Source of the DNA: Desulfobulbus propionicus DSM 2032
Lineage (GTDB): Bacteria > Desulfobacterota > Desulfobulbia > Desulfobulbales > Desulfobulbaceae
Assembly (NCBI RefSeq): GCF_000186885.1
Contig: NC_014972.1
Coordinates: forward strand, 1,710,001 to 1,742,000
Reading direction: 5' to 3'
Length of the DNA: 32,000 bases
The translations under genes and the position numbers were made by a program. The notes under the pieces were generated by a model. That model had not been told where the DNA came from, searched no databases, and was given only the letters and a program-made list of their open reading frames with translations. Shown piece by piece: positions 10,031 through 27,380 of this stretch (the stretch's first letter is position 1; the number at the start of each line of letters is the position of its first letter).

Positions 10031-10336
10031 AGGGCAAACGATCACGGACCGCCAGTTTTTTTGACGGTTCCTCTCCAAGCAGCCGTCTGCCGCCGCACTA
10101 AACGTCTTCCCCGACCGTTCATGTCCTGCTTTTTCCATGCAGGAATTGCGGCCGGTTGCCTTGTCCACGGGCGCTTCGTTTGCCGACGGAGCGTCTGTTT
10201 TTTTGTGGCAGCTCAGAGGACAGGAAACCGCGGACTGCCGGACCCGCCGCGATTGCATCCAGGAGTGAACAGCCGGGCAACGGATCTCTTGCCGGTGTGT
10301 ACAACAGCTATCCTCTTTCTATCCACTATTCACTTA

Positions 10337-10365
10337 TTGCAAACAGGTTCGCCTCTTTATCTAAT
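10337..10365 (+). promoter_or_regulatory. Candidate sigma70-type promoter of the TIR-STAND operon
   Basis: TTGCAA (10337-10342), a 17-nt spacer, then TCTAAT (10360-10365). It lies in a locally AT-rich patch about 110 nt upstream of the TIR gene ATG. Sequence match only. Confidence 0.3.
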
Positions 10366-10473
10366 GAATCCGCGATCAATGCATTTCCGCTTTCGAGGAA
10401 GCGCATTGCAGGGGACACGCTTGGCTGCCGTTCATCGCCGAAGGCATACTCCACCACCAGAGGGCAGTTAACG

Positions 10474-11946
10474 ATGTATGTACCACATTGCAAATACGAT
10501 ATTTTTATCAGTTACGCCCACGTTGACGACCTCCCCTTTCCCGGCTCATCCGCCGGCCATGCAAGAGGGTGGGTGACCACCTTTGTCGGTTGCCTCAAGA
10601 CCAGGCTCGCGCAAAAATTGGGCCGCAGCGATGCCTATTCCTTGTGGATGGATCATGAAATGGAAAGCTGGCCTTACATTTCGCAACAGTTGCTCAGCAA
10701 TATTCGTGATTCAGCCAGCTTGGTGGTCGTCCTCTCGCCCGGCTATGTGGCTTCACCGTGGTGCCAGCGGGAGCGCAACGCCTTTTTGGCTCTCCTGGAG
10801 GAACATGTGGCCCGTCCGGTGTTCCTTGTCGAACGGGAACGAGTGGAGGACGAGTTTCCCGCGGAACTGATGGATCGCAAGATTTTCCGCTTTTGGGTTC
10901 AGGAGCGCGAGGGCAAGGCACCGCGCATTCTGGGCGTTCCCTGCCCTGATCCGGCTGATCACGAATATTACAACCAGATCGATGACCTGTGTCAGGACAT
11001 CGCGACCAATCTGAAACGTCTCAGGGGTGCCGGTGGGGCGGTCACCGCTCTTGCCGCATCCTCTCCATCCAGCCTCGCGCCGGCCATGGCTCCCAGAGGA
11101 AGGGTATATCTCGCCCAGGTCACCGACGACCTTGATCTCCAGCGCAACAGTGTCAAGCGGTATCTGGAACAGGCCGGGGTGGAGGTGCTGCCGGCCACCT
11201 GGTATTCCCAGGATCCCAAGATCTTTCGCGCTCACGCCGAACAAGATCTTGAACGTTGCGACCTGTTCGTGCAACTGATCAGCGAGACAGCGGGCAAGAG
11301 ACCGGAAGACCTGCCCCAGGGGTATCCGCAGTTTCAGTTGGAGCTGGCCCTGGCAACCGATAAGCCCATTCTCCAGTGGCGAAACCCGACATTGGATTGT
11401 GCAGCCATCGAGGATAAGGCGCACCAGGCGTTTCTAACGGCAACAACGGTACGCTCCGAGGGGCTGGAAGATTTCAAAGGCGAGATCCTCAGGCGGCTGG
11501 TTACTCCGCCTGTGACTCACGGGTTGAAGAAGAGCGTCTATGTATTCGTGGACATGGAATCGGCGGATCGCCCTTTTGCCGAGCAGATCTGCGATATCCT
11601 CGATCGGTACGGCGCGGAATACGTACTGCCGGTGCAGAGCGACAATCCAACGGAAAACCGGCACGACCTGGAGCAGAATCTGGTCGAATGCGACGCGCTC
11701 ATCGTGATCTATGGCAGCGCGACCAAAACCTGGGTGCGCGGCCAATTGCAGGAAGCCCGCAAATCGGTCGCCTTGCGGAAAACGCCGCTGCGCGCCCTGG
11801 CCGTGTTTGAAGGGCCGCCCGAGGAAAAGGCGCCGCTGGACATGAAAATCCAGGGAATGCAGGTGCTCGATCATCGCAAGGGCATCAACGAACACCAGGT
11901 GCGGCAATTTCTTGACAGCCTGGTGGTGGCGGAGGCCGGCTCATGA
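10474..11946 (+). CDS. TIR-domain protein with two additional TIR/DUF4062-like Rossmannoid modules (490 aa)
   Basis: The homologous part starts at MYVPHCKYDIFISYAHVDD. The TIR-type block LVVVLSPGYVASPWCQRERNAFL keeps the Glu at the position of the TIR catalytic glutamate. Second module: RVYLAQV...LERCDLFVQLIS...KPILQW. Third module: VYVFVDME...LVECDALIVIYGS. The track ORF start at 10156 would run through the AT-rich promoter region and is rejected. Confidence 0.8.
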   Translation: MYVPHCKYDIFISYAHVDDLPFPGSSAGHARGWVTTFVGCLKTRLAQKLGRSDAYSLWMDHEMESWPYISQQLLSNIRDSASLVVVLSPGYVASPWCQRERNAFLALLEEHVARPVFLVERERVEDEFPAELMDRKIFRFWVQEREGKAPRILGVPCPDPADHEYYNQIDDLCQDIATNLKRLRGAGGAVTALAASSPSSLAPAMAPRGRVYLAQVTDDLDLQRNSVKRYLEQAGVEVLPATWYSQDPKIFRAHAEQDLERCDLFVQLISETAGKRPEDLPQGYPQFQLELALATDKPILQWRNPTLDCAAIEDKAHQAFLTATTVRSEGLEDFKGEILRRLVTPPVTHGLKKSVYVFVDMESADRPFAEQICDILDRYGAEYVLPVQSDNPTENRHDLEQNLVECDALIVIYGSATKTWVRGQLQEARKSVALRKTPLRALAVFEGPPEEKAPLDMKIQGMQVLDHRKGINEHQVRQFLDSLVVAEAGS

Positions 11947-14900
11947 GCACACGTCAACCGTACCCCGGCTTGCGCCCCTTTGACCGCGACGAGGCCGACA
12001 TCTTTTTTGGCCGGGAAGAACAGACCGACGATCTGCTCAGCCGCCTCAACGCCAGCCGTTTTCTCGCCATTGTCGGCACGTCCGGATGCGGCAAGTCGTC
12101 CCTGGTCCGCGCCGGCATGATTCCCGCCCTGGAGACCGGTTTCATGGCCGCCGCTGGCTCACGCTGGCAGTTCGTGCAGATGCGGCCGGGCAGCCACCCG
12201 ATCTGCAGATTGGCCACCGCCCTGGTCGACGAGGCGGAGCTGTTGCACGAGGGAGAGGAGCGATCGCAGGCCTTGGGATTCCTCAACGCGGCTCTGCGGC
12301 GGGGGCCAATGGGCCTGATTGACGCCTTGCGCCACACCCCGTTGCCGCCCCACACCAACCTGTTGATCCTGGTCGATCAGTTCGAGGAAATTTTTCGCTT
12401 CCGCCGGGAGGGAGACCGGGACGAGGCCGATGCCTTCGTGGCGCTGCTGCTGGCCAGCGCGCAACAACGCGATCTGCCGGTGTATGTCGTTTTGACCATG
12501 CGCTCCGATTTCATCGGCAGCTGCGCCCTGTTCAACGGTCTGCCCGAAGCGCTCAATCAGAGCCAATACTTGACTCCCCGCTTGAGCCGTGAACAACAAC
12601 ACATGGCCATTGTTGGCCCGGCACGCGTGTTCGGCGGCGAGGTGGAACCGGAACTGGTCAACGCGCTGCTCAACGCGATGGGCACGGACCCGGATCAACT
12701 GCCGCTGCTCCAGCATTTGCTGATGCGGTTGTGGCATGTTGCCGGATCGGTGCCACCGTCGTCTCCCGGTACGCCTTATCCAGGGGATGGTTCGTCGACA
12801 CGGCTGTTGACCATGGACGACTATGAAGCGGTCGGCGGTTTGCAGCAGGCCCTCTCCAACCATCTCAACGAGGCGTATGGGGAGCTGGACGGCAACCAGC
12901 GGCAGGCGGCCGAGATTCTGTTTCGTCGCCTGTCCGAACGAGGAACGGAACAGCGCGACATCCGCCGGCCCACGGTGTGCGTGGAGATAGAAGAGCTGAT
13001 CGGTATCCGCCATGACCAACTGGTTGCCGTGGTGGAGATCTTCCGCGCCCCTGATCGCAGTTTCCTTACCCCGCGGCAGCCAGAAGAGATTTTTCCCAAT
13101 ACCGTGCTGGATATCGCCCATGAATGCCTGATCCGCCAGTGGGACCGGTTGCGCGGCTGGGCAAGGGAGGAAGCGCGGTCGGCGGAAACCTACCGTCTTC
13201 TCGAACGGGCGGCGCAGCGCAAGGAAGAAGGCGAGGGCGGGTTTTATCGTCCCCCTGAATTGGAGGCAGCCCTGGCCTGGAGGGAACGGGAACAGCCTTC
13301 TCCGGTCTGGGCTCGGCGCTACGGCGGCGATTTTGCGCAGGCCATGCGGTTTTTAGCTGAAAGCGAGCAGGTCCACCGGTCCGAAGAAGCCCGGGCGGAA
13401 GAACGCCGGCGCAAGGAACTGCGCCGAAACCGCGTGCTCGCATGGGCCGGGGGGATGGCCACCGTCCTGCTGCTTGCCTTCATCGGCTTTTCGTCGTTGA
13501 ATTGGGTGGTTCCTCACCGCATCTACTGCAAGGACTTCACCAAACAATGGGGGAAGATCGTCCCCATCGGCCGCTTGCCTTCCTCGGCGGTCAGCCATCG
13601 ATCATGGACCATTCGCCTGACCAGCAAGGGCTGGAGCGGTGACATCCGAACCATGGAAGTGATCGATGCCCGCCATCAGCTCACTCCCAACCATTTCATC
13701 GGCACCTATTTGACCGACGCAAGACTGGTCACAACCCGGCAGGAAAAAGAATCGCGCTATGAATTGGCCTTTGACCGCGCCGGCCGGGTGGTTTCCGAGA
13801 CTGCCTTCGATCGGTTTGGCCGGATGGTCTGGGGCGCGGTGCACGCTCCGTATACCGAAGCGGAAGGGGTCCGGCCAACATCGACCCGGGCCACCTACCT
13901 GGGGCCGGATGGTCATCCTCAGCCGCAGGGTCGAAGTCGGGCCGAGTTTGTTGCAATTCGCTACGACACGAATGGCTTTGAGGAGGAATTGCGCTACACG
14001 GACCGGCAAGGCCGACCCATGCCGGGCCCAGACAACGCATTCGGCCAACAACGAATCTACGACAGCCGGGGACGGGAAATCCGCCGAACCTCGCTCAATG
14101 AGCGCGGACAGCCGATGGTCGACAAGGTGGGCAATGCAGTGGCTGAAGTTGACTATGACCCTGAAGACAATATTGTTGCGTCACGATTCCTCGACACCGC
14201 CAATCAGCCGACCCTGGTCAATGCCGACTATGCCAGCACCCGACTGGCTTATGACCGGTGGGGGCGGATGACCGAGCAGCGATTCTTTGGCTTGCGTGGC
14301 GAACCCGTCGTGGAGACGGGGCAGACCGGCGCCCACTGGATTGTCTGGCAATACGACGACCGGGGCAACGTCACCCATATCCGTCTGTACGATGCAGCCG
14401 ATGCGCCCATGGTCGGCGGCAAGGGGTATTTTGATTTTCCCGCCTTTGAGCAGCGTGCGTCCTTCACCGAACACAATCGTTTGAAAACGGTTGCCTACTT
14501 CGATCAAGGCAACGCTCCACTGACCGGCCCCGAAGGCTGGCATGGCTACCGGATCGAGTATGATCAGCGCGGCTTTGTCGCCCAAATCAGCTATTTCGAT
14601 CAAAACCTCAAGCCGGTCAACCTGCGCTCGTTCGGCTGGTCGCATTGGGCACGGGTGAACAATGCTTTTGGCCAGCCTCTTGAAGAACGGTTTTTCGACC
14701 AGGACAACCAGCCGGTGACCACGCTTGACGGCGGCTATCACCTGCGCAGGAACGCATACGATCCGGCTGGCAACTGTATTGCGCAAACTCATTTCGACGT
14801 GGACGATCAACCCGTGGCCGACAAAACCAACGGAGCTCACCGAGTGGCAACCGAGTTTGACCGTTTTCGCAATCCGGTCATGGTCGAGTATTTTGCTGCT

Positions 14901-16085
14901 GGGGACATGCGGATCAATACGAACCAGGGGGTGCATCGGCAGCAATCGACCTACGATGACTACGGCGGGCTGACGGACAGCAGTTGGTACGACAAGGACA
15001 ACCGCCCTGCCAATGGACCAGACGGCGTGCATCATGTTGCCTATGCCTACGATCAGCGGGGGATGATAACCCGCATGGAACGATACGATGCCAAGGGGCA
15101 GCCGGCTGTCGGCAAGGATGGCATGCATAAGGTGGTGTACGACCATAACGACAAAGGCCAGGAAATCAAATGGCAGGCGTTTGCTCTGGACGACAAACCG
15201 GCGGAAGACTCCGAGGGCAACCATCTGGCGATCAACGAGTTTGACCCGTGCGGCCGCGAGATCCGCAGTACCCGGTTGCGGGCGGATAACAGCCCCAACT
15301 GGGACCGCCAGTTGGGAATCGCCACCCGAAAACAGGTGTGGGACCGAGAAAACCGCTGGATCGAGCAGGCCTATTACGATGCCGAGGAACATTTGGTCAT
15401 GGGGCCGTTCGGGGCCGCCAGACAAATTGCTGTCTATCAGGCCGATGGCCGCGAGGAAATTCACCGCCATTTTGGAGCGAACGGCCAACTCGTCTACAAC
15501 CCGTTGGTCGGATATGCCGAGTTGCGCCTTCGTCGGGGCGATAACCACACCCTGTTGAGCGTGACCTTTTGGGGGTCAGATGGTTCCCCGATCAATGGTC
15601 CCCATGGCTATCATCGCGCCCAACAAGCGGAGGGATCATCGGAGGACAAGCGTTATTTCGATGCCCAGAACCATGAATGGCCCGCGCTGAGTCCGGAGGC
15701 CGCTGTTCCCATCATCTACATTACCGAGATCACCGACATCAAACAGCCCGCCGCCAAAGCCGGTCTGCACGCCGGCGACGTGTTGTGGCAATACGGCGAT
15801 TGGTCGTTTGCCGGTGCCCTGGAGGCAGAACGTGCTCAGGGGAACACGACCGACCCGGTCTTGCAGGTATGGCAAGCTTTTTGGGACGAAGTCGCATACT
15901 GGTTCTGGAGAGAGGACCCAGAGGGGTCGGTGACCGTGCCGGTGATCGTGATTCGCGATGGGCAACCCGAGCGCTTGACTCTTTCGCCGCTTCCGCAAGA
16001 TTTCGACCGTACCGGGCTGCGTTGCGATCAGCGGATGGTACCGAGTGCCTTGTTCGAGGCATGGAAAGCCGCAGCGGCAAAGTAA
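11943..16085 (+). CDS. Membrane-anchored STAND-type P-loop NTPase with YD-like repeat array and C-terminal PDZ-like domain (1380 aa)
   Basis: The N-terminus PYPGLRPFDRDEADIFFGREEQ, Walker A GTSGCGKSS, Walker B LLILVDQFEE, TMRSDF and LPLLQHLLMRLW form the pattern of 'novel STAND' (nSTAND-like) NTPases. GGAGG lies 7 nt upstream, and the ATG overlaps the TIR gene stop (ATGA 11943-11946). Confidence 0.8.
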   Translation: MSTRQPYPGLRPFDRDEADIFFGREEQTDDLLSRLNASRFLAIVGTSGCGKSSLVRAGMIPALETGFMAAAGSRWQFVQMRPGSHPICRLATALVDEAELLHEGEERSQALGFLNAALRRGPMGLIDALRHTPLPPHTNLLILVDQFEEIFRFRREGDRDEADAFVALLLASAQQRDLPVYVVLTMRSDFIGSCALFNGLPEALNQSQYLTPRLSREQQHMAIVGPARVFGGEVEPELVNALLNAMGTDPDQLPLLQHLLMRLWHVAGSVPPSSPGTPYPGDGSSTRLLTMDDYEAVGGLQQALSNHLNEAYGELDGNQRQAAEILFRRLSERGTEQRDIRRPTVCVEIEELIGIRHDQLVAVVEIFRAPDRSFLTPRQPEEIFPNTVLDIAHECLIRQWDRLRGWAREEARSAETYRLLERAAQRKEEGEGGFYRPPELEAALAWREREQPSPVWARRYGGDFAQAMRFLAESEQVHRSEEARAEERRRKELRRNRVLAWAGGMATVLLLAFIGFSSLNWVVPHRIYCKDFTKQWGKIVPIGRLPSSAVSHRSWTIRLTSKGWSGDIRTMEVIDARHQLTPNHFIGTYLTDARLVTTRQEKESRYELAFDRAGRVVSETAFDRFGRMVWGAVHAPYTEAEGVRPTSTRATYLGPDGHPQPQGRSRAEFVAIRYDTNGFEEELRYTDRQGRPMPGPDNAFGQQRIYDSRGREIRRTSLNERGQPMVDKVGNAVAEVDYDPEDNIVASRFLDTANQPTLVNADYASTRLAYDRWGRMTEQRFFGLRGEPVVETGQTGAHWIVWQYDDRGNVTHIRLYDAADAPMVGGKGYFDFPAFEQRASFTEHNRLKTVAYFDQGNAPLTGPEGWHGYRIEYDQRGFVAQISYFDQNLKPVNLRSFGWSHWARVNNAFGQPLEERFFDQDNQPVTTLDGGYHLRRNAYDPAGNCIAQTHFDVDDQPVADKTNGAHRVATEFDRFRNPVMVEYFAAGDMRINTNQGVHRQQSTYDDYGGLTDSSWYDKDNRPANGPDGVHHVAYAYDQRGMITRMERYDAKGQPAVGKDGMHKVVYDHNDKGQEIKWQAFALDDKPAEDSEGNHLAINEFDPCGREIRSTRLRADNSPNWDRQLGIATRKQVWDRENRWIEQAYYDAEEHLVMGPFGAARQIAVYQADGREEIHRHFGANGQLVYNPLVGYAELRLRRGDNHTLLSVTFWGSDGSPINGPHGYHRAQQAEGSSEDKRYFDAQNHEWPALSPEAAVPIIYITEITDIKQPAAKAGLHAGDVLWQYGDWSFAGALEAERAQGNTTDPVLQVWQAFWDEVAYWFWREDPEGSVTVPVIVIRDGQPERLTLSPLPQDFDRTGLRCDQRMVPSALFEAWKAAAAK
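13434..13511 (+). other. Predicted single transmembrane helix within the STAND protein
   Basis: VLAWAGGMATVLLLAFIGFSSLNWVV (about aa 498-523) is preceded by the basic stretch EERRRKELRRNR. The positive-inside rule places the NTPase in the cytoplasm. Prediction by eye only. Confidence 0.55.
13756..15680 (+). other. Protein-level array of about 18-20 degenerate ~32-33-aa YD/RHS-like repeats
   Basis: Recurrent pattern [YF][YF]D-x4-P-x5-G-x-H-x5-YD-x2-G-x7. Example units: YFDQGNAPLTGPEGWHGYRIEYDQRGFVAQIS, FFDQDNQPVTTLDGGYHLRRNAYDPAGNCIAQT, WYDKDNRPANGPDGVHHVAYAYDQRGMITRME, RYDAKGQPAVGKDGMHKVVYDHNDKGQEIKWQ. There is no DNA-level repetition. Confidence 0.65.
15705..15990 (+). other. PDZ-like domain at the C-terminus of the STAND protein
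   Basis: IIYITEITDIKQPAAKAGLHAGDVLWQYGDWSF ... VPVIVIRDGQPERLTLSP resembles the PDZ signature (xPAxxAGLxxGDhI ... V.V.R.G). Assignment by eye. Confidence 0.5.
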
Positions 16086-16342: not shown

Positions 16343-18460
16343 GTGAAAAATATTATCGCCTCCTTCTTTCTGCTCATCGCCTGTTTTTTGCCCGCGGTCT
16401 GGCGGCTGGTCTACCAGGGATTGGGGGAACCCATTGGCCTGCTGTCCGACCTCGGCTGTGGCCTGGGCATTCTGCTGCTCTCCCTGTTCAGCCCCCATTG
16501 GGTCCGCATCCCGGTGCTGATTCTCTGGGTATTGGCCCAGGCAGCGGCCCGCGAGCTGATCCTCACCATGCAGCGGCTGCCCAATTGGCAGGATTTGCAA
16601 TACCTGGCCGATCCCGAGTTCATCGCCAACAGCACCTCCGGATTCAATCTATCGTCCCCCTATCTGATCGGTGTGTTCATCCTCTCCACGCTGCTGGCCT
16701 GCTGCTTTCCAACCAGACGGCCAGGACGGCAATGGCTGCTGCGGGGCAGCGCGGTGTGTGTGGCCCTGCTGCTCGCCCATACCGTGGTGAACAGCCGGTT
16801 CGACAAGCAGAGCGTCATTGCCCGCTACAATCCCATGCACTGGTTCGCCGTCGACAGTCTGACCTCGGCGCTGCAGCGGCAATCCCTGCCCGATGCGGCC
16901 AGTCTGCCCACGGGCCTCAACGAGCTGGAGCTCGACGCCCCCTCCCTGCTCGCCAAGAAGGGCAGGGCCAAGAATGTGCTCATCGTCATTCTCGAAGGCA
17001 TTCCAGGCATGTACCATCCGGAAATCGGCAAGACGATGAACATGGCTTCCACGGACATCGAGATGCACCGTCTGGCCGCGGCCACCAGCGAGGCCATGCT
17101 GATTCCCGATTTCACCGCCCACAGCCACCAGACCATCCGCGGCCTCTACTCGATCCTGTGCGGCGATTTCAGCAAGCTGTCCTGGGACACGCCCAAGGCC
17201 TTTGAACTCCAGTCCAACCCGGCCCGCGCCCAGGACTGCCTGCCTTCCCTGATGAGTCAGTTCGGCTGGTCCACCCATTTTCTCCAGGCCGCTGGCCTTG
17301 GTTTCATGGGCAAGGACCGGATCATGCCGCGAATGGGCTTTCAGCAGGTGCACGGCACCGAGTGGTTCACCGAGCCCAATCCCTACCCGTTTGAATGGGG
17401 GGTGGTGGACAAGGTCTTCTTTCAGGGCGCGGCCAAGTATATTGCCCAGCTGCGCGCCAAGAAGCACCCCTGGATGCTGACCTTGCTGACCGTGGGCACC
17501 CATCAGCCCTATGCCGTGCCGGACGATGTCGCCAGCCATTTTGGTTCGCGGAAAGATGCCACCGTGGATCTGCTCGACCAGGCGGTGGCCGAGTTTATCG
17601 AGCAACTGCGCCGGGATGGCGTGCTCAAGGATACCCTGGTGATCATCACCTCGGATGAATCCCACGGCTCGCCCTTGGCTGATTGGGTGAGCAGCTGGGG
17701 ACTCGGCATGGTGTTGGCGCCGGAACAAAAACGGCTGCCGAGGATCAAGGAAGGCGGCTTCGGTCTGGTGGACATCACGGCCTCGGTGCTCGATTACCTG
17801 CAGGTCAAGATGCCGCCGACCCTGATCGGCCGCAGTTTTTTCCGCGTCTACGACACGCCACGGGAGATGGTCTCCTATACCACCTCGAAACGGCGCTGGC
17901 ATACCGTCGACAACCGGCGCTACGAGTGTGCCGATGACGGTCGCTGCCGCGTGGGCACGGCCCCAAGCCTGCTCGGTCCGCCGCCGGCCGAGTTTGTCGC
18001 CGACCGTGACGGCGGTCCGCGGCTGGCCGGCATTGCCCGTGTTCTGGATCAGAAGCTGCTCACCGACGAAACGACCAAGACTTTGCAGTTTGCCAACGGT
18101 GAACGGCGCAAACTGCCGGAAAAAATCACCAACGAATGGGGGGATAACCTGGTGGGGGCGCAATACCTCGATTTCCCGGCAAAATCAAAGGTGCAGGTGG
18201 CCATCCGCTATACCGCGCTCAAGGCGCCGCCCGCCGGCATCCAGCTCAAACTGCTGGTCAAGGAGTGGGAATACACCCAGCACGACATTCCCATCCCGGT
18301 CTTCCCGGTGGTGCACAAAGGCGAGGAGGGCGAGGTGGAGTTCGAGTTCGCCAATCCCAAGGCCCGCCAGTATTTTTCCTTTCACCTGCTGGGTGAAGGC
18401 AAGAATGCCGAGATTCGGATGGACGAGTTCAATGTGACCATCGACCAGGAGGAAGGATGA
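16343..18460 (+). CDS. Membrane-anchored sulfatase/alkaline-phosphatase superfamily enzyme (LtaS/OpgB/phosphoglycerol-transferase-like)
   Basis: GTG start. The N-terminal ~170 aa has several hydrophobic helices. The catalytic domain has NVLIVILEGIPG, HSHQTIRGLYSILCG (putative Thr nucleophile), TVGTHQPY and IITSDESHG. An extra ~150-aa C-terminal region has no recognisable motif. Confidence 0.8.
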   Translation: MKNIIASFFLLIACFLPAVWRLVYQGLGEPIGLLSDLGCGLGILLLSLFSPHWVRIPVLILWVLAQAAARELILTMQRLPNWQDLQYLADPEFIANSTSGFNLSSPYLIGVFILSTLLACCFPTRRPGRQWLLRGSAVCVALLLAHTVVNSRFDKQSVIARYNPMHWFAVDSLTSALQRQSLPDAASLPTGLNELELDAPSLLAKKGRAKNVLIVILEGIPGMYHPEIGKTMNMASTDIEMHRLAAATSEAMLIPDFTAHSHQTIRGLYSILCGDFSKLSWDTPKAFELQSNPARAQDCLPSLMSQFGWSTHFLQAAGLGFMGKDRIMPRMGFQQVHGTEWFTEPNPYPFEWGVVDKVFFQGAAKYIAQLRAKKHPWMLTLLTVGTHQPYAVPDDVASHFGSRKDATVDLLDQAVAEFIEQLRRDGVLKDTLVIITSDESHGSPLADWVSSWGLGMVLAPEQKRLPRIKEGGFGLVDITASVLDYLQVKMPPTLIGRSFFRVYDTPREMVSYTTSKRRWHTVDNRRYECADDGRCRVGTAPSLLGPPPAEFVADRDGGPRLAGIARVLDQKLLTDETTKTLQFANGERRKLPEKITNEWGDNLVGAQYLDFPAKSKVQVAIRYTALKAPPAGIQLKLLVKEWEYTQHDIPIPVFPVVHKGEEGEVEFEFANPKARQYFSFHLLGEGKNAEIRMDEFNVTIDQEEG

Positions 18461-21699: not shown

Positions 21700-22770
21700 G
21701 TGGTGAGTAACGGGAAAGAATCCCAAGCAATGCTGGCGGTCCTCATTGATGCGGATAATGCGCAACCGTCTGTAACAGACGCGTTGATGGCTGAAATTGC
21801 CAAATATGGAATTGCGAGCGTCAAGCGCATCTATGGTGACTGGACTACTCCGCATTTAGTTGGGTGGAAATCTATCGTCCTAGAATATTCCATTCAACCC
21901 ATCCAGCAATTTCGTTACACTACCGGTAAGAACGCCACCGACAGCGCCATGATTATAGATGCGATGGATTTACTGTACACTAGGAGGTTTACGGGGTTTT
22001 GTTTGGTATCAAGCGATAGCGATTTTACACGTTTGGCTTCACGAATTCGCGAGGAAGGTTTTCCTGTATATGGATTTGGGGAGCGAAAAACGCCTCAAGC
22101 TTTTGTGTCAGCCTGCGATAAATTCATCTACACCGAAGTGCTGTGTACCGAAGAGCACGAATTATCCTCTGGCCACGCATATATCCGTGTCCCGGAAACC
22201 ACGAATGCATTAAAAGGCGACGCCAAGTTAGTCAATCTCATGAGACGAGCGATTGAAGCAGCGTCTGATGAAAATGGATGGGCACTATTAAGCGGGGTGG
22301 GGACGAATATTGCCAAACAATCACCTGAATTTGATCCCCGAAACTACGGTTACACTAAACTCGGTGAACTCGTTAAAGCCATGCAGTTATTTGAAATCGA
22401 GAAACGCGGCAATCGAGGTAACCAATCAACGGTTATCTATATCCGCGATCAGCGAAAAAAACGACTGCCTGAGACGCCCTCACTATCAATAGATCCGGTT
22501 TTTGTGAAACACTGGGATCAGTTTTTTGCCCGCTACAACGAAGGTGACAGCTTGGATGGAGTCATTGAAAAGATTACTCCTTTTTTGGGACTATTTATCA
22601 CCATGCCAATCCAAGGATTAAAAGGACTCCTTCATAAATCCAACCTTCCTGAGGACTTTCTGACACGTTTTAAGATCGGTCAAACGATATCCGTAACGAT
22701 TAAAGCAATCCGAAAAGAGAAGTATCAGGTTGAACTGCAAAGAAATCCGTCATTATGCGAGGAGGATTGA
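21700..22770 (+). CDS. NYN (LabA/DUF88-type PIN-like nuclease) - OST-HTH/LOTUS - S1-like RNA-binding domain protein
   Basis: GTG start with AGGAG 6 nt upstream. NYN blocks: AVLIDADN, GKNATDSAMIIDAMDLL and FCLVSSDSDFTRLASRIREEGFPVYGFG. LOTUS-like: GWALLSGVGTNIAKQSPEFDPRNYGYTKLGELVKAM. S1-like: GDSLDGVIEKITPFLGLFITMPIQGLKGLLHKSNL...FKIGQTISVTIKAI. Visibly lower GC than its surroundings. Confidence 0.8.
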   Translation: MVSNGKESQAMLAVLIDADNAQPSVTDALMAEIAKYGIASVKRIYGDWTTPHLVGWKSIVLEYSIQPIQQFRYTTGKNATDSAMIIDAMDLLYTRRFTGFCLVSSDSDFTRLASRIREEGFPVYGFGERKTPQAFVSACDKFIYTEVLCTEEHELSSGHAYIRVPETTNALKGDAKLVNLMRRAIEAASDENGWALLSGVGTNIAKQSPEFDPRNYGYTKLGELVKAMQLFEIEKRGNRGNQSTVIYIRDQRKKRLPETPSLSIDPVFVKHWDQFFARYNEGDSLDGVIEKITPFLGLFITMPIQGLKGLLHKSNLPEDFLTRFKIGQTISVTIKAIRKEKYQVELQRNPSLCEED

Positions 22771-22795
22771 TCGTTCCCACGCTCCAGCGTCCCCG
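22768..22795. repeat. Single REP unit in inverted orientation (collapsed doublet)
   Basis: TGATCGTTCCCACGCTCCAGCGTCCCCG. Its reverse complement, GGGGACGCTGGAGCGTGGGAACGATCA, joins the left arm of sub-unit 1 to the right arm of sub-unit 2 of the doublets. It begins at the NYN gene stop codon. Confidence 0.75.
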
Positions 22796-22811
22796 TTGAA
22801 AGAGAAAACCC

Positions 22812-23345
22812 ATGGCCAGAAGCCGCTACGTGATCCTGGAGCCGGACAAACCCCATTTTCTGACCTGCACGGTTGTCGAGTGGCTGCCTGTCTTCACCCG
22901 TCCGGATGCGGTGCGGATCCTCCTGGAAAGCTGGTCTCGTCAACGGGCAAACGCTGGGTTGCGGCTCTACGGCTACGTGATTCTGGAAAACCACCTGCAC
23001 TTCGTGGCCCAGGCCCCGCGTCTGGACAAGTGTCTGCACAGCTTCAAGTCCTTCACCGCCGCCCGGCTGATCGAGCTGCTGGAGGCGCACCGGGCGGAGC
23101 GGCTGCTGGCTCGCCTGCGACTGGCGAAACGGGCGCACAAGCACGACCGGCAATACCAGTTCTGGCAGGAAGGCTCCCATGCCGAACTGATTGTCAGCGA
23201 ACCGGTGCTGCGGGAAAAGCTGGAATATGTCCATCACAACCCGGTGAAACGGGGATACGTGGACCTGCCCGAGCATTGGCGGTATTCGAGTGCGCGGAAT
23301 TATCTCGGACAGCCGGGTTTGATCGAAATCGATCCGTGGTTCTGA
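22812..23345 (+). CDS. REP-associated tyrosine transposase (RAYT, IS200/IS605-like Y1 HUH transposase family)
   Basis: 177 aa. HUH motif in YVILENHLHFVAQ, catalytic-Tyr helix region EYVHHNPVKRGY, and a typical C-terminal W.YSS...Y. Flanked on both sides by inverted REP units. Confidence 0.85.
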   Translation: MARSRYVILEPDKPHFLTCTVVEWLPVFTRPDAVRILLESWSRQRANAGLRLYGYVILENHLHFVAQAPRLDKCLHSFKSFTAARLIELLEAHRAERLLARLRLAKRAHKHDRQYQFWQEGSHAELIVSEPVLREKLEYVHHNPVKRGYVDLPEHWRYSSARNYLGQPGLIEIDPWF

Positions 23346-23352
23346 ACGGAAA

Positions 23353-23406
23353 GGGACGCTCCAGCGTCCGGGATGCGTCCCCCCGCTGGAGCGGGGGAAC
23401 GATCAA
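23353..23406. repeat. REP doublet (second copy)
   Basis: GGGACGCTCCAGCGTCC (23353-23369), a 5-nt spacer, then GCGTCCCCCCGCTGGAGCGGGGGAACGATCAA (23375-23406). Relative to the 21645-21670 copy, the stem shows paired A>C / T>G substitutions. Confidence 0.8.
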
Positions 23407-23538
23407 CGCGATCTAACCGTAAGCAACATCCTGCCGGTATCTCCGTGATCATCCGCCCAGGGCATCATTCACCGTTTACCTTTCGCCAAGAACCTGCTAT
23501 TCACCTACCCACCTATCCACTTCTACCTCGAATCACCC

Positions 23539-25371
23539 ATGACCGAACATCAGTACGACGAATCCAAGATCAAGACGCTCAGTTCGCTGGAGCACATCCG
23601 CAAGCGGCCGGGCATGTACATCGGCCGCCTCGGCGACGGCTCCCATCCGGATGACGGCATCTATATCCTGCTCAAGGAGATCCTGGACAACGCGGTCGAC
23701 GAGTTCATCATGGGCCACGGCAAGCGGATCGATATCCATATCGGCGAGGACGGCCTCTGCCGGGTACGCGACTACGGCCGCGGCATTCCGCTGGGCAAGG
23801 TGGTGGAGTGTGTGTCGGTGATCAACACCGGCGCCAAGTACAACACCGAGGTGTTCCAATTTTCGGTCGGTCTCAACGGCGTGGGGACCAAGGCGGTCAA
23901 CGCCCTCTCGAGCCACTTCACGGTCACTGCCTTCCGCGACGGCCGGTACAAGACCGCCGTCTTTGCCCAAGGGCTATTGCAACGCGAGGAAGAAGGCGAG
24001 ACCACGGAGAAGAACGGCACCCTGATCGAGTTTCTCCCCGACAGCGAAAGTTTCCCCGGCTTTCGCTTCGATCCCCAGTATGTCGACCAGCGACTGTGGC
24101 GCTACGCCTATCTCAACGCGGGGCTGAGCCTTTATCTGGATCGCGATCTCTATCTGTCCAAAAACGGCCTGCTCGATCTCCTGGATCGCGAGGTGAGCAG
24201 CGAACGGATCTATCCGCCGATCCATTTCGTCGACAAATCGATCGAATTTGCCTTCACCCACACCGACGACTACGGCGAGTCCTACTTCTCGTTTGTCAAC
24301 GGTACCTACACCAGCGAGGGCGGCACCCATCTGTCCGCCTTCCGTGAGGGCATTCTCAAGGGCATCAACGAGTTCACCGGCAAGAAGTTCAACGGTCTGG
24401 ACGTGCGCGACGGCATTGTCGGCATCCTGGCGGTCAAGGTCCAGGAGCCGGTGTTCGAGTCGCAAACCAAGAACAAGCTGGGCAACACCGACATTCGTGG
24501 CCCCATTGTCAACGCGGTTAAGGATGCGGTGGCCACCCACCTGTACAAGTTTCCGGAGACGGCCGAAGTCTTGGTCGACAAGGTGCAGCGCAACGAGCGG
24601 GTGCGGCGGGAGTTGCAGTCGGTGCGCCGCGACGCCAAGGCCAAGGCCAAGAAGATCGCCTTCAAGATCCCGCAGCTCAAGGACTGCAAGTACCACCCAT
24701 CGCGCGGCCAGGCCTCCAAGCCGGGCCGGGAGAACATGCTCTTCATCACCGAGGGCCAGAGTGCCGCCGGCTCGATCGTCAGCGCCCGCGACCCCATGAC
24801 CCAAGCGGTGTTCAGCCTCAAGGGCAAGCCGATGAACGTGCTCGGCCAGCGGCTCGACGTGCTTTACAAGAACGAGGAGATGTACTCCTTGATGCAGGCC
24901 CTCAACATCGAGGACTCGATCGCCGATCTCCGTTACGACAAGGTCATCCTGGCCACCGACGCCGACGTCGACGGCCTCCATATCCGCAACCTGCTGCTGA
25001 CCTTTTTCCTCCACTACTTCGAGCAGCTGATCAAACAGGAGCGGGTCTATATTTTGGAGACGCCGATCTTCCGGGTGCGCAACAAGGAAAAGACCTTTTA
25101 CTGCTATTCCGATCGCGACATGGACGAGGCCATCACCGCGCTCAAGGTCAAGAGCAAGGCCGACCGGGCGGTGGAAACCACCCGCTTTAAGGGGCTGGGC
25201 GAGATTTCGCCCCCCGAATTCAAGCAGTTCATCGGCCAGGATATGCGGCTGCGGCAGGTGCGGCTTGATCGTCTCAGCGAGGTCAGCCGGGTGCTCAAGT
25301 TCTACATGGGCAAGAACACGCCGGAGCGCAAACAATACATCATGGACCACCTGATCGTGAGGCCGGTATGA
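23539..25371 (+). CDS. parE: Type IIA DNA topoisomerase subunit B (ParE/GyrB family, short form)
   Basis: GHKL ATPase N-terminus (LEHIRKRPGMYIG, EILDNAVDE, DYGRGIP), Toprim EGQSAAGS and ATDADVDGLHI. At 610 aa it lacks the GyrB insertion, hence ParE-like. The symbol is tentative. Confidence 0.75.
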   Translation: MTEHQYDESKIKTLSSLEHIRKRPGMYIGRLGDGSHPDDGIYILLKEILDNAVDEFIMGHGKRIDIHIGEDGLCRVRDYGRGIPLGKVVECVSVINTGAKYNTEVFQFSVGLNGVGTKAVNALSSHFTVTAFRDGRYKTAVFAQGLLQREEEGETTEKNGTLIEFLPDSESFPGFRFDPQYVDQRLWRYAYLNAGLSLYLDRDLYLSKNGLLDLLDREVSSERIYPPIHFVDKSIEFAFTHTDDYGESYFSFVNGTYTSEGGTHLSAFREGILKGINEFTGKKFNGLDVRDGIVGILAVKVQEPVFESQTKNKLGNTDIRGPIVNAVKDAVATHLYKFPETAEVLVDKVQRNERVRRELQSVRRDAKAKAKKIAFKIPQLKDCKYHPSRGQASKPGRENMLFITEGQSAAGSIVSARDPMTQAVFSLKGKPMNVLGQRLDVLYKNEEMYSLMQALNIEDSIADLRYDKVILATDADVDGLHIRNLLLTFFLHYFEQLIKQERVYILETPIFRVRNKEKTFYCYSDRDMDEAITALKVKSKADRAVETTRFKGLGEISPPEFKQFIGQDMRLRQVRLDRLSEVSRVLKFYMGKNTPERKQYIMDHLIVRPV

Positions 25372-27380
25372 GCGAAACCACCGAGCAGCCGCGCGGCAAG
25401 CTCCATCAACTGTTCGATACCAATTTTCTCGACTACACCTCCTACGTGATCCGCGAGCGGGCCATCCCGGATGTGGACGACGGCCTCAAGCCGGTGCAGC
25501 GACGCATCCTCCAAACGCTCGCCAACATGGACGACGGCCGTTTCCACAAGGTGGCCAACGTGGTCGGCGAAACCATGAAGCTCCATCCACACGGCGATCA
25601 ATCGATCTTCGATGCCTTGGTCAACCTGGCCAACAAGGGCTATCTGATTGACCGCCAGGGCAACTTCGGCAACATCTTCACCGGCGACCAGGCCTCGGCG
25701 CCGCGTTACATCGAGTGCCGATTGTCGCCGCTGGCGCGCGAAACCCTGTTCAACAAGGACCTGACCGAGTTCATCGACTCCTACGACGGCCGCATGCAGG
25801 AGCCGGTACGGCTGCCGGCCAAGATCCCGCTGCTGCTGCTCTTGGGTGCGGAAGGCATTGCCGTGGGCATGGCCACCAAGATCATGCCGCACAACTTCGG
25901 CGAGCTGCTCCAGGCCCAGATCGATTACCTGCGCGGCCAGGAATTTGTGCTCTATCCGGATTTTCCCCGCGGCGGCATCATTGATGTCGCCGATTACAAC
26001 CACGGCAACGGCCGTATCCGCTGCCGGGCCAAGCTGGAACAGCCGGATTCCAAAACCATCGTCATCACCGAGCTGCCCTACAATCTCACCACCCAAGCCC
26101 TGATCGAGTCGATCGAGAAGGCGGCCAAGGCGAACAAGCTCAAGATTGCCTCGATCAACGACTACACTGCCGAAAAGGTCGAAGTCGAGATCAAGCTGGC
26201 GCGAGGGGTGCTCGCGGAGGAGACCATCGACGCCCTCTACGCCTTCACCGACTGCGAGCTGAGCGTTTCGCCCAGCCTGGTGACCATTGTCGACAACATG
26301 CCGCGACAGATGGCGGTCGAGGAGGTCCTGCGGCGCAACACCGACCGGCTGGTGGCCAACCTGGAGCGCGAACTGCAGATCGAATTGGGACGGCTGGAGG
26401 ACAAGTGGCACGCGCGTAAGCTGGAGCAGATCTTCATCGAGGAGCGGCTCTACAAGCAGATCGAGGAGAAGACCAATTACAAGGAGGTGCAGGCCACGGT
26501 CCGCGACTCGTTGCTCCCCTTTGCCAACGAACTCAAGCGCAAGATCACGCCCGAGGACGTTGAGCGGCTGCTGGAGATCAAGATTCGCCGTATCTCGCGC
26601 TATGACATCAATCGCCAGCAGAAGGAACTGCGCGACATCGAGAAGCAGATCGGTCAGATCAAGAAGCACCTGACCGACATGATCGGCTTCACCGTTGCCT
26701 ACCTCGGGGAACTGGCAGCCAAGTACGGGTCGCAATTTCCACGAGCTAGCGAGCTGCGCGCCTTTGACGAGGTCGATGCCCGCGCTGCGGCCCTGTCCAA
26801 TCTCACCGTCGGCTACCACCGCGAATCAGGCTTTCTTGGTCACAAGATCAAGGCTGAGGACGAGGCGCATGACCTGGATTGTGCCTGTTCCGAGTACGAC
26901 CGGCTCTTGCTGATCTTCAAGGACGGCCTCTACAAGGTGATCCATGTGCCGGACAAGCTGTTTGTCGGGCCCGACCTGTACTGGCTGGGGGTGGTGAAGA
27001 ACGATCTGGTGTTCAACCTGATTTATCGCCACGGCCCGGAGAACCTGGCCTATGTCAAACGCTTCGCCACGCCCAAGTTCATCCTCGGCCGGGACTACCG
27101 GCTGTTCGAGGCGGACAAGCGATCCGCCATCCTGCTGTTGCTGCTCGGCAAGGAGGGGTTGCGGGTGCGGGCCAGCTTGGCGCCGTCGGCCCGGGCCAAG
27201 TACAACGCGGTGGAAATCGAACTCGACGAGGTGCTGATCAAGGGCGTGAGCGCCAAAGGCAAGCGTATTGCCAACCGGGCCGTGCGCCGGGTGACCGACA
27301 TCACCGGCACCCCCAAAAAAGCGCCGGTCAGTCCGCTGGAACTGCCGGGTTTCGGTGGTGGCAGCGGGGAGAAAGAATAG
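25368..27380 (+). CDS. parC: Type IIA DNA topoisomerase subunit A (ParC/GyrA family, short form)
   Basis: FLDYTSYVIRERAIPDVDDGLKPVQRRIL, HPHGDQSIFDALVNL, QGNFGN and the active-site Tyr context APRYIECRL. Only 670 aa. ATGA overlap with the B subunit. The symbol is tentative. Confidence 0.75.
   Translation: MSETTEQPRGKLHQLFDTNFLDYTSYVIRERAIPDVDDGLKPVQRRILQTLANMDDGRFHKVANVVGETMKLHPHGDQSIFDALVNLANKGYLIDRQGNFGNIFTGDQASAPRYIECRLSPLARETLFNKDLTEFIDSYDGRMQEPVRLPAKIPLLLLLGAEGIAVGMATKIMPHNFGELLQAQIDYLRGQEFVLYPDFPRGGIIDVADYNHGNGRIRCRAKLEQPDSKTIVITELPYNLTTQALIESIEKAAKANKLKIASINDYTAEKVEVEIKLARGVLAEETIDALYAFTDCELSVSPSLVTIVDNMPRQMAVEEVLRRNTDRLVANLERELQIELGRLEDKWHARKLEQIFIEERLYKQIEEKTNYKEVQATVRDSLLPFANELKRKITPEDVERLLEIKIRRISRYDINRQQKELRDIEKQIGQIKKHLTDMIGFTVAYLGELAAKYGSQFPRASELRAFDEVDARAAALSNLTVGYHRESGFLGHKIKAEDEAHDLDCACSEYDRLLLIFKDGLYKVIHVPDKLFVGPDLYWLGVVKNDLVFNLIYRHGPENLAYVKRFATPKFILGRDYRLFEADKRSAILLLLLGKEGLRVRASLAPSARAKYNAVEIELDEVLIKGVSAKGKRIANRAVRRVTDITGTPKKAPVSPLELPGFGGGSGEKE

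Follow-up and report, generated by a model that had tools for sequence, protein, structure and literature searches.

Bacterial nSTAND1 NTPases were defined as a clade by Kaur, Burroughs, Iyer and Aravind (2021, eLife, PMC8195603). Their systems share with the gene pair described here the NTPase clade (PF20703), TIR domains among the effectors, a variable C-terminal 'antigen-receptor-like' sensor and a predicted counter-invader role; the same authors see such systems as linked to a multicellular habit and not strictly to phage (PMC7159879, PMC8195603). DUF4062 proteins, a second family met at this locus, were shown experimentally to be anti-phage NADases (bioRxiv 10.64898/2026.05.01.722283, 10.64898/2026.06.25.731849). 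A preliminary description of the window (the whole stretch of 32,000 nucleotides that was analyzed) had proposed a transmembrane NLR-like switch. This idea fits the anatomy of the locus, but periplasmic sensing by transmembrane bacterial NLR-like proteins had been suggested earlier in a general form (Kibby et al. preprint 10.1101/2022.07.19.500537; Dore et al. PMC10907252).

Here, we describe two adjacent genes, A and B, which we read as a two-gene NLR-like conflict module, probably anti-phage or anti-competitor, with outside-in topology. We give this reading a probability of roughly 0.55.

Organization of the locus

The pair and its boundaries comprise the following features.

10167..10198, plus strand: terminator-like hairpin (stem of 14 pairs with a T run behind it; found by scan), located 3' of exbB-exbD-tonB
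10474-11946, plus strand: gene A ORF, 490 aa with its ATG start at 10474; cytoplasmic three-domain protein
11931..11946, plus strand: ribosome binding site and gene overlap (GGAGG at 11931-11935, 7-nt spacer, ATGA stop/start at 11943-11946)
11943-16085, plus strand: gene B ORF, 1380 aa, predicted single-pass membrane STAND protein

A longer ORF starting with TTG at 10156 also covers gene A; the ATG at 10474 is favored as the start because 59 homologs align from that methionine. On the left, the A-B unit is bounded by the hairpin; the scan also placed a promoter-like site downstream. The ATGA overlap with its ribosome binding site indicates that A and B form one transcription unit, and translational coupling of the two genes is probable; junctions of 4 nt or close to zero were also found at four other loci (L001, L004, L006 and L007). 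Hundreds of full-length homologs, long ORFs and strong family matches place the pair far beyond chance. ORF, Pfam and motif checks located every feature previously assigned to gene A, gene B and their junction exactly where it had been reported.

Gene A

Gene A was found to consist of a TIR domain, a TIR-like DUF4062 domain and a third alpha/beta domain.

10486..10953, plus strand: TIR domain, aa 5-160, Pfam TIR_2
11086..11508, plus strand: domain 2, aa 205-345, DUF4062-type TIR-like fold
11527..11943, plus strand: domain 3, aa 352-490, conserved flavodoxin-like alpha/beta domain

The protein opens with MYVPHCKYDIFISYAHVDD and also contains SPWCQRE; a hydropathy scan revealed no hydrophobic segment. 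Pfam assigned TIR_2 (E 6.7e-23, 81.9 bits, cut-off 28) and, at aa 210-276, DUF4062 (E 2.4e-6, 28.1 bits, cut-off 24.7). The AlphaFold model (pLDDT 89.4) contains three alpha/beta domains spanning aa 8-195, 210-343 and 356-489; this adds to the earlier description, in which A opens with a TIR domain.

The catalytic-type glutamate E100 of the WCQRE motif (nt 10771-10773) is invariant across 60 homologs of A, as are W96 and C97 in the homolog alignment, and it lines up with the WCxxE glutamate of the plant TIRs RUN1 and SNC1. Foldseek matched the model to the TIRs of RUN1, RPP1, SARM1 and MyD88 with probability 1.0, the best matches being plant TIR domains. Profile, fold and the glutamate at the catalytic position thus agree, and A is predicted to be a TIR-type NAD-cleaving protein. 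Its TIR could make a signal rather than deplete NAD+.

Domain 2 contains a glutamate (position 290) at the catalytic position in this protein, but the column holds E, D, Q, K, R, A or H across homologs. For domain 3, the homolog alignment and the AlphaFold model revealed neither a family match nor a conserved acidic catalytic residue; its co-linear resemblance to domain 2 is weak (hhalign E 0.002, probability 12%), and it is kept in 70 of 73 adjacent partner genes. We regard domain 3 as a candidate adaptor to the ATPase of B.

ATPase and predicted transmembrane helix of gene B

The N-terminal half of B contains an NTPase module followed by a single hydrophobic segment.

11958..13226, plus strand: nSTAND1 NTPase module, aa 6-428, Pfam PF20703
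12075-12101, plus strand: Walker A GTSGCGKSS, intact GxxxxGK[ST]
12360-12389, plus strand: Walker B LLILVDQFEE, intact hhhhD followed by acidic residues
13401..13502, plus strand: basic stretch RRRKELRRNR and transmembrane helix (aa 498-520, nt 13434-13502)

B belongs to the nSTAND1 clade as judged by a profile match far above the curated cut-off (PF20703, E 2.8e-97, 327.2 bits against 27.1, profile positions 1-372 of 379) and by intact Walker A and B motifs; it also carries the motifs PYPGLRPF, TMRSDF and LPLLQHLLMRLW. With this match and those in gene A, all three families anticipated in the preliminary description (TIR_2, DUF4062-like and nSTAND) were recovered above cut-off. Residues K51, D145, E148 and E149 are invariant in an alignment of 16 diverse homologs. 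Since the module begins at residue 6, B has no N-terminal effector or adaptor domain, as had been noted.

Topology was judged from hydropathy, charge bias and domain context. The segment aa 498-520 is single, 23 residues long and has a Kyte-Doolittle 19-residue mean of 2.1; no second segment in the whole protein reached 1.6. It is flanked by 8 K/R before and 2 in the 15 residues after it, and 857 residues lie C-terminal to it. In the AlphaFold model, the basic stretch and the helix form one straight continuous helix joining both halves of the protein. The order proposed earlier, i.e. basic stretch, one hydrophobic helix and then a long stretch of YD-like repeats, was thus borne out. The helix was found in 114 of 120 homologs of B, with more K+R on the ATPase side in 114/114 (mean 5.5 versus 1.9 on the opposite side). 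Among the nSTAND1 relatives, 71 of 79 have the helix, 4 of the other 8 being cut by contig ends; helix hydropathy in relatives has a median of 2.4 and reaches 3.0. One span, the positive-inside bias and a predicted ectodomain of extracytoplasmic type describe a single-pass receptor, and we infer that B spans the inner membrane once, N-in/C-out, with its ATPase in the cytoplasm.

Predicted ectodomain of gene B

Three parts were distinguished C-terminal to the helix.

13512..14222, plus strand: juxtamembrane part, aa 524-760, conserved in the alignment
14223..15662, plus strand: YD-type beta-hairpin repeats, aa 761-1240, about 20 repeats with a period of about 32 aa
15690..16082, plus strand: PDZ-like domain at the C-terminus, aa about 1250-1380, interrupted by a helical insertion; includes AAKAGLHAGDVLWQYG

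The juxtamembrane part opens with the family motif YYNxFxKxWGxPxGIG, which in this B reads IYCKDFTKQWGKIVPIG. YD-type beta-hairpins were identified in the repeat region, with the consensus GYHxxxxxYDxxGNxxExxYFDxxGxP; Pfam/NCBIfam matches to RHS_repeat and YD_repeat_2x were weak. Pfam applied directly to B returned no PDZ, but PDZ_6 is annotated in many B homologs, and a profile of the B C-terminus aligned with the C-termini of PDZ_6-bearing homologs at a probability of 96.7% (hhalign E 3.4e-10).

Foldseek searches with the B model (pLDDT 91.1, pTM 0.77) retrieved shells of the Rhs, Tc and teneurin type with E-values of 1e-24 to 1e-15, including T6SS Rhs cores (best, 2.6e-24) and Tc TcB/TcC. 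Together with the weak repeat matches, this would suit a Rhs/YD polymorphic toxin or delivery protein whose YD shell holds cargo and whose ATPase is accessory. However, TM-scores of only 0.1-0.28 and an rmsd of 20-30 angstroms point to a shared repeat unit and not to a closed shell. Furthermore, the DPxG[LWI] Rhs autoprotease motif is absent from B and there is no C-terminal toxin, the C-terminus being PDZ-like; the cytoplasmic ATPase at the N-terminus carries no secretion-system adaptor, PAAR, VgrG and a signal peptide all being absent; and the conserved partner is a TIR protein instead of an immunity gene. The toxin explanation is already largely refuted, and we consider it highly improbable.

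The combined juxtamembrane and YD (+PDZ) module was also found behind N-terminal signal peptides (in P0290, P0301, P0302, P0251 and P0339) and, C-terminal to a helix, in Ser/Thr kinases, AAA_35 ATPases and TIR proteins. The ectodomain family numbers about 3,600 cluster representatives. Because the same module follows signal peptides and sits on receptor-type kinases, the ectodomain of B probably lies outside the cytoplasm. This location, proposed in the preliminary description, is well supported by the comparisons, the helix and its positive-inside polarity being conserved as well. The shared YD/PDZ ectodomain suggests an unrecognized class of bacterial extracellular sensors common to kinases and immune modules.

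Alternatively, the same two-gene module may have a cytoplasmic sensor. Its helix would then only tether the protein (monotopic or re-entrant) or pack in the oligomer, and the YD/PDZ or WD40 part would read an intracellular invader component, as in Avs/bNACHT. To our knowledge, all characterized bacterial STAND defenses sense cytoplasmic phage proteins. Moreover, about 42 of 67 relatives have WD40 repeats in place of YD as the outer module behind the helix, those of Apaf-1 and TEP1 are cytoplasmic, and 4 cysteines in the 857 ectodomain residues give no sign of disulfide dependence. Against this stand the hydropathy of the 23-residue segment, a charge bias fitting N-in/C-out in every helix-bearing homolog, the straight helix of the model, the occurrence of the ectodomain after signal peptides of the cleavable type as well as on receptor-type kinases, and the fact that all structural matches of the YD part are extracellular YD shells. 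A cytoplasmic sensor consequently appears quite unlikely.

WD40 repeats of characterized STAND proteins are cytoplasmic, so those behind the helix in relatives are either periplasmic propellers or belong to proteins in which the helix is not a simple span.

Conservation, linkage, and distribution

A TIR(+DUF4062) gene lies directly upstream in 7/7 other YD-type B loci examined, and a TIR partner gene occupies the same upstream position in 70 of 79 more distant nSTAND1 relatives (62 full three-domain, 8 partial). Absence of such linkage had been named in advance as grounds for dropping the proposal; the linkage is conserved, and with the overlapping genes it upholds the view of the effector as a separate polypeptide. 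Pfam analysis of 70 partner proteins (66 from nSTAND1 relatives, the A of the window and three YD-type partners) identified TIR_2 in 59 and DUF4062 in 48. No fused A-B protein was found among relatives; one candidate fusion (L061) was rejected as an ORF-calling artefact. Distances among A proteins co-vary with those among B ATPases (Mantel r 0.877; 0/999 permutations as high).

By sequence comparison, the constant core of the family is a TIR gene, nSTAND1 and the helix, which occurs widely across phyla with patchy spread. ATPases are 54-75% identical and ectodomains 22-56% identical among B homologs; this divergence and the swapping of modules suggest receptor-like evolution of the ectodomain.

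The distribution bears on another explanation, namely that B is a non-immune transmembrane receptor for envelope stress, kin or contact recognition, or developmental cell death, with the TIR making an NAD-derived signal or adjusting NAD+. The window offers no obvious defense island around the pair. Instead, the neighbors are housekeeping and envelope genes, i.e. the exbB-exbD-tonB TonB system, a sulfatase-family membrane protein and an LD-carboxypeptidase. In DegS and RseP, PDZ domains act as sensors of envelope-stress peptides. The same ectodomain is found on many Ser/Thr receptor kinases, which are ordinary signaling proteins, and some partner proteins carry an extra kinase or cyclase domain; the multicellular habit stressed by Kaur et al. 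(PMC7159879, PMC8195603) points in the same direction. On the other hand, the combination of TIR, STAND and DUF4062 is so far known only from immunity and cell-death contexts. Patchy distribution, transposases flanking the pair in several loci and tandem paralogues such as two divergent copies of the pair within 8 kb in Paraburkholderia resemble defense genes, and the loci examined share no downstream receptor next to the pair that could take up a TIR-made signal. We regard a non-immune receptor as rather unlikely.

Proposed mechanism

Under the preferred reading, a conflict module with outside-in topology, the YD repeats and PDZ-like domain of B would lie in the periplasm; the neighboring exbB-exbD-tonB genes show that the cell possesses an outer membrane. 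The B ectodomain would bind an extracytoplasmic ligand, for which the PDZ suggests an exposed peptide C-terminus. Binding would relieve autoinhibition across the membrane, whereupon the ATPase of B would swap its nucleotide and oligomerize in a STAND-like manner. The oligomer would then cluster A, probably through the conserved domains 2 and 3 of A; this route is proposed because B has no N-terminal adaptor. Finally, the clustered TIRs, possibly with DUF4062, would hydrolyze NAD+, leading to growth arrest or death. The predicted topology, A:B contact, ligand-triggered oligomerization, NADase output and immune role all enter this scheme as inferences.

For the family as a whole, we tentatively suggest a bacterial counterpart of surface pattern-recognition receptors, a proposal we consider less likely than not. 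A STAND/NLR-like switch would detect periplasmic components of phage or competitors, either ahead of genome entry or while it takes place, and fire a TIR NADase inside; possible cues are tail or ejection proteins that have been ejected, damage to the envelope, and exposed peptide C-termini read via PDZ. The juxtamembrane and YD (+PDZ) module would serve as a general extracytoplasmic recognition domain shared by STAND proteins, AAA_35 ATPases, Ser/Thr kinases and TIR proteins, with TIR-helix-YD proteins having a TLR-like layout. If the sensor does lie outside the cytoplasm, bacteria would be able to link recognition at the envelope to a TIR death effector, much as Toll-like receptors allow in animals; this would raise the question of which phage or competitor parts show in the periplasm. 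With a large, conserved family, a compact pair of two genes in 5.6 kb, and E100 and K51 as obvious catalytic residues to mutate, the proposal is directly testable.

Comparison with known systems

PADLOC-DB v2.0.0 gave no system-specific match; the best hits were PDC-S66 for A (5.7e-4) and mad8 for B (1.2e-5, P-loop region only), and Pfam found no NACHT in B. A TIR/nSTAND1/helix system of this kind is named neither in PADLOC (2023) nor in the searchable literature. The pair is uncatalogued in that neither protein has a PADLOC model, as had been supposed, but it is not rare: judged from homologs, the architecture is widespread, mostly with WD40 instead of YD. Further assignments were rejected. 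Thoeris was dismissed since ThsB_TIR reached 17.5 bits in A, below the cut-off of 21.2, with no ThsA-like gene nearby; FxsC (NCBIfam NF040588) reached 45.1 bits against a cut-off of 130; and a Swarozyc/Evangelion type was discarded because the Glu 290 column is variable and because A has the order TIR-DUF4062-domain 3, with the STAND protein encoded by another gene, in place of the DUF4062-AUX layout.

In the nSTAND1 systems of Kaur et al. (PMC8195603), effectors or effector-associated domains are fused N-terminally, whereas here the effector is a separate three-domain protein. Their sensor is FGS/C-type lectin, often retroelement-diversified, and that of B consists of YD repeats and a PDZ-like domain. 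Neither a separate effector of this type nor a protein that starts with the NTPase, continues with a helix and ends in YD repeats and a PDZ-like domain is mentioned in the text of PMC8195603 that was consulted.

The bNACHT/Avs systems likewise pair a STAND ATPase switch with a sensor that varies and with a death effector, for example TIR. However, they belong to another NTPase clade, and characterized members are soluble single proteins sensing cytoplasmic phage proteins; members of their transmembrane class cross the membrane several times, in some cases within the NTPase, in contrast to one helix and an 860-residue ectodomain in B. Swarozyc and Evangelion are single proteins of DUF4062 and an auxiliary domain and respond to phage portal or replication in the cytoplasm, whereas DUF4062 in A lies between a canonical TIR and domain 3, separate from the ATPase. 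In the eukaryotic proteins TEP1 and NWD1, DUF4062 immediately precedes a NACHT ATPase that carries WD40 repeats; this order, DUF4062 then STAND, is that of A then B, and NWD2 and NPHP3 belong to the same eukaryotic DUF4062 set.

Toll-like receptors resemble the pair in having an extracellular repeat sensor, a single span and cytoplasmic TIR signaling, and the plant TIR-NLRs RPP1 and ROQ1 in having a STAND-driven oligomer that activates a TIR NADase. There is no sensor homology, the chain polarity of Toll-like receptors is opposite, and the TIR of A-B sits on a separate polypeptide; the comparison serves as a working analogy, and convergence most likely accounts for the resemblance. Rhs, Tc and teneurin shells share with B the beta-hairpin YD unit, and all are extracellular; B differs in its low global superposition and in having neither the autoprotease motif nor an encapsulated toxin. 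Unlike in these shells, the YD repeats of the B family serve as the ectodomain of cytoplasmic signaling modules.

Organization of the A-B gene pair

The two genes, their flanking elements and the genes directly downstream are located as follows:

10167-10198: terminator-like hairpin closing the upstream exbB-exbD-tonB genes
10474-11946, + strand: gene A, 490 aa
11943-16085, + strand: gene B, 1380 aa
16239-16268: promoter-like site preceding the downstream sulfatase-family gene
16343-18460, downstream of B: multi-span sulfatase-family (LTA-synthase/EptA-like) membrane protein, 705 aa
18506-19159, strand opposite to the preceding gene: hydrophobic protein, 217 aa, no Pfam match

Both open reading frames agreed exactly with the preliminary description. 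The ORF list also contains a longer, TTG-started version of A beginning at 10156; the Met at 10474 coincides with the alignment start of 59 full-length A homologs. The junction was found as described before, with GGAGG at 11931-11935, a spacer of 7 nt and the stop/start overlap ATGA at 11943-11946. Apparently, A-B is a self-contained unit, because a terminator-like hairpin lies upstream and the next gene downstream has a promoter-like site. The sulfatase-family gene was considered as a third component and rejected, since it has its own promoter-like site and is missing from all homologous loci. In the homologous loci read, neither this gene nor the 217-aa gene is conserved beside the pair.

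Domain structure of A and B

For protein A, 60 homologs (44-70% identity, each of 475-510 aa) were aligned and a structure was modelled with AlphaFold (pLDDT 89.4). Alignment and model revealed three alpha/beta domains comprising aa 8-195, 210-343, and 356-489; a strongly hydrophobic segment is absent by Kyte-Doolittle analysis. Domain 1 is a canonical TIR domain (TIR_2, E 6.7e-23), in which W96, C97, and E100 are invariant among the 60 homologs. Its Glu aligns with the WCxxE motif of the plant TIRs RUN1 and SNC1, and the best structural matches of A are the TIR domains of RUN1, RPP1, SARM1, and MyD88. Domain 2 is DUF4062 (E 2.4e-6), which two preprints of 2026 show to be a TIR-like anti-phage NADase (Swarozyc, 10.64898/2026.05.01.722283; Evangelion, 10.64898/2026.06.25.731849). 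A Glu is present at the expected catalytic position (E290), yet this column varies among the homologs. Domain 3 is conserved, carries no family assignment and shows a co-linear similarity to domain 2 which is not significant (hhalign E 0.002, probability 12%).

Protein B contains an nSTAND1 ATPase (Pfam E 2.8e-97, aa 6-428) with invariant Walker A Lys and Walker B acidic residues. The ATPase begins at residue 6; B therefore has no N-terminal effector or adaptor domain, as had been noted for the effector from the sequence. The arrangement proposed for the remainder, a basic stretch, one hydrophobic helix and about 860 further residues, was also recovered: RRRKELRRNR precedes the only strongly hydrophobic segment (aa 498-520, Kyte-Doolittle 19-residue mean 2.1), and 857 residues come after it. 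An AlphaFold model of aa 480-1380 (pLDDT 91.1, pTM 0.77) showed the basic stretch and the hydrophobic segment as one continuous helix, followed by about 20 beta-hairpin pairs that recur roughly every 32 residues and by a C-terminal alpha/beta domain. The profile of the C-terminus matches the C-termini of homologs bearing Pfam PDZ_6 (hhalign probability 96.7%, E 3.4e-10).

A Foldseek search with the model of B returned T6SS Rhs cores, Tc toxin TcB/TcC, and teneurins with E-values of 1e-24 to 1e-15 and TM-scores of just 0.1-0.28. Judged by the model, B shares the repeat unit of these proteins, not their closed cocoon. In spite of these matches, the reading of B as a Rhs-type toxin is hardly credible and was rejected, as the TM-scores are low and neither a DPxGL-type autoprotease motif nor a toxin domain was found in B.

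Conservation of the pair

More than 120 full-length homologs of B share 33-58% identity over about 90% of the length and an identical layout; their sources include Methylomonas, Chlorobium, Pelodictyon, Ca. Methylumidiphilus, Brocadiaceae, Acetobacteraceae, Polyangiaceae, and Paraburkholderia. Seven distinct loci of homologs with a YD-repeat ectodomain (YD-type; library proteins P0002, P0003, P0004, P0118, P0069, P0090, and P0020) were read. In all seven, a TIR (+DUF4062) gene encoding 418-508 aa abuts the start of the B homolog, and the surroundings of these pairs are otherwise unrelated to each other. Directly downstream of one YD-type pair lies a SLATT_1/DUF4231 gene (L088:12689-13153); SLATT_1/DUF4231 proteins are membrane components of predicted conflict systems.

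Furthermore, one genome per species was scanned with the full-length B alignment A2, which yielded the 80 closest nSTAND1 domains instead of YD-type proteins. Among the 79 loci analyzed, 73 have an adjacent upstream gene of at least 200 aa on the same strand; 62 of these partners contain all three A domains, eight a partial set, and three are unrelated. A set of 70 partner proteins (66 from the 79 nSTAND1 relatives, A itself, and three YD-type partners) was searched with Pfam; 59 of them contain TIR_2 and 48 contain DUF4062. Pairwise distances of A correlate with those of the B ATPase (Mantel r 0.877), a value reached by 0 of 999 permutations. According to the preliminary description, a lack of conserved linkage between B homologs and TIR genes would refute it; in view of these results, this check did not refute the finding.

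Two apparent deviations were rejected. Effector swapping in Bacteroidota partners had been suspected since single-sequence phmmer searches missed the TIR domain; profile searches restored it in most cases, and the idea was given up save for a few N-termini that could not be assigned (loci L046 and L069). An apparent A-B fusion at locus L061 was a spurious out-of-frame ORF extension. Paraburkholderia sp. HD33-4 (locus L086) carries two complete, divergently oriented TIR + nSTAND1 pairs within 8 kb (L086:1-2253 and L086:6586-12668); a patatin gene is found near these pairs and likewise at locus L001.

A strongly hydrophobic helix follows the ATPase in 71 of the 79 nSTAND1 relatives (median peak 2.4), and four of the eight without it are truncated at the end of a contig. 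Behind the helix, these relatives lack a YD-like region; about 42 of 67 have WD40 propellers there. Since the helix is kept and the region behind it varies, the conserved core is [TIR-DUF4062-domain 3] + [nSTAND1-helix] with an exchangeable outer module, which in B is of the YD/PDZ kind. Members of the YD clade share 54-75% identity with B in the ATPase and 22-56% in the ectodomain; by sequence, this gap resembles the pattern typical of receptors with fast-evolving sensors. Some partners from planctomycete and verrucomicrobial relatives are extended at the N-terminus, with a Ser/Thr kinase or adenylate/guanylate cyclase domain placed before TIR-DUF4062-domain 3:

L040:5566-7968, kinase- or cyclase-extended partner protein
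L047:4824-7688, kinase- or cyclase-extended partner protein
L062:5635-7974, kinase- or cyclase-extended partner protein
L075:2157-4286, kinase- or cyclase-extended partner protein

Predicted location of the B ectodomain

We infer that the C-terminal part of B is extracytoplasmic, with good in-silico support from four independent lines that agree. The helix is present in 114 of 120 YD-clade homologs, and Lys and Arg within 15 residues of it average 5.5 on the ATPase side and 1.9 on the other, the ATPase side being higher in 114/114. Every structural match of the ectodomain is an extracellular YD shell. When 1.84 billion representative proteins were searched with the ectodomain only, 3,636 relatives were identified at E <= 1e-3. 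nSTAND1 was found in 53 of 129 new top matches; the other 76 are partly fragments without an N-terminal module, and in most of the full-length ones among them, the juxtamembrane + YD (+PDZ) module follows another kind of N-terminus. Among the N-termini confirmed or seen are a Ser/Thr kinase, an AAA_35 ATPase or a TIR domain, each with a helix, and in five proteins a plain signal peptide:

P0290, P0301, P0302, P0251, P0339: ectodomain module behind a plain N-terminal signal peptide

The main counter-argument comes by analogy: in known STAND proteins, WD40 sensors lie in the cytoplasm, and B might likewise have a cytoplasmic sensor with the helix as a tether. Helix conservation, charge bias, signal peptides and extracellular-type structural matches speak against this arrangement, which we regard as quite improbable. 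As the fourth line, the adjoining TonB system indicates a diderm host with an outer membrane, so that an extracytoplasmic ectodomain would face the periplasm.

Reuse of the juxtamembrane/YD/PDZ module as an ectodomain is widespread among receptor-type proteins of bacteria. Twelve proteins combine an N-terminal TIR with the same YD ectodomain and no ATPase (P0261, P0263, P0268, P0270, P0287, P0307, P0317, P0331, P0333, P0341, P0344, P0350). TIR_2 was located by Pfam at aa 22-134 of P0261, the one protein examined in this way; in several, e.g., P0263, P0333, P0341, P0344, and P0350, TIR and YD are separated by a hydrophobic helix located at about aa 175-270, a layout that by analogy resembles Toll-like receptors. 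A Ser/Thr kinase (Pkinase) + helix + YD (+PDZ_6) occurs in P0304, P0284, and P0308, and an AAA_35 ATPase + helix + YD in P0260.

Proposed mechanism

By analogy with characterized STAND proteins and TIR NADases, the following sequence is most likely. The ectodomain of B would bind a ligand, for which the PDZ-like domain hints at exposed peptide C-termini, and autoinhibition would be released across the membrane. The B ATPase would then oligomerize and cluster A, with domains 2 and 3 as candidate docking surface; the TIR domain would be activated, leading to loss of NAD+ and cell arrest or death. That the pair acts instead as a non-immune receptor for envelope or social signalling is unlikely.

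Other genes in the window

A gene at 27443-29125 encodes a member of the AIPR (abortive infection phage resistance) family (Pfam E 2.7e-54). The stretch around it has a markedly low GC content (0.45-0.53 vs about 0.61 for the window), and the gene probably serves in defence and was acquired horizontally. A NYN nuclease - OST-HTH/LOTUS - S1 RNA-binding protein is encoded at 21700-22770, followed by a 228-aa ORF (22730-23416) of low GC (0.48) and no Pfam match. Between the NYN and AIPR genes, short GyrB/ParE-like (610 aa) and GyrA/ParC-like (670 aa) genes with overlapping stop and start occupy 23539-27380. The ATPase-domain match of the former is rather weak (HATPase_c, E 1.4e-7); the two may simply represent topoisomerase IV.

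Comparison with known systems

PADLOC-DB v2.0.0 contains no model for A or for B; the preliminary description had likewise not recognized the architecture as a named defence system. Literature phrase searches for transmembrane, membrane-anchored or membrane-spanning STAND or NLR proteins returned nothing relevant; descriptions of a separate TIR-DUF4062 partner gene, of the single-helix nSTAND1 architecture or of YD/PDZ ectodomains as shared sensor were not found either. A link to 'EACC1', named alongside nSTAND1, was rejected, as EACC1, a small transmembrane protein that pairs with a caspase, is unrelated to A-B.

As defined by Kaur et al. (2021; PMC8195603), nSTAND1 proteins have FGS lectin sensors and carry their effectors or effector-associated domains in fusion, whereas the A-B pair has its effector in a separate gene and a YD/PDZ sensor. 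Some retroelement-diversified STAND sensors were predicted to be periplasmic (Dore et al. 2024; PMC10907252). In eukaryotic TEP1/NWD1, DUF4062, STAND, and WD40 are fused; relatives of A-B have the same order with DUF4062 on a separate protein. Judged from sequence, A-B is a real, conserved and uncharacterized variant of bacterial NLR-like/TIR conflict systems. The family is common, not exotic, and the outside-in idea had been put forward before in a general form; the components and logic of A-B are already known, its predicted topology and its sensor are not.
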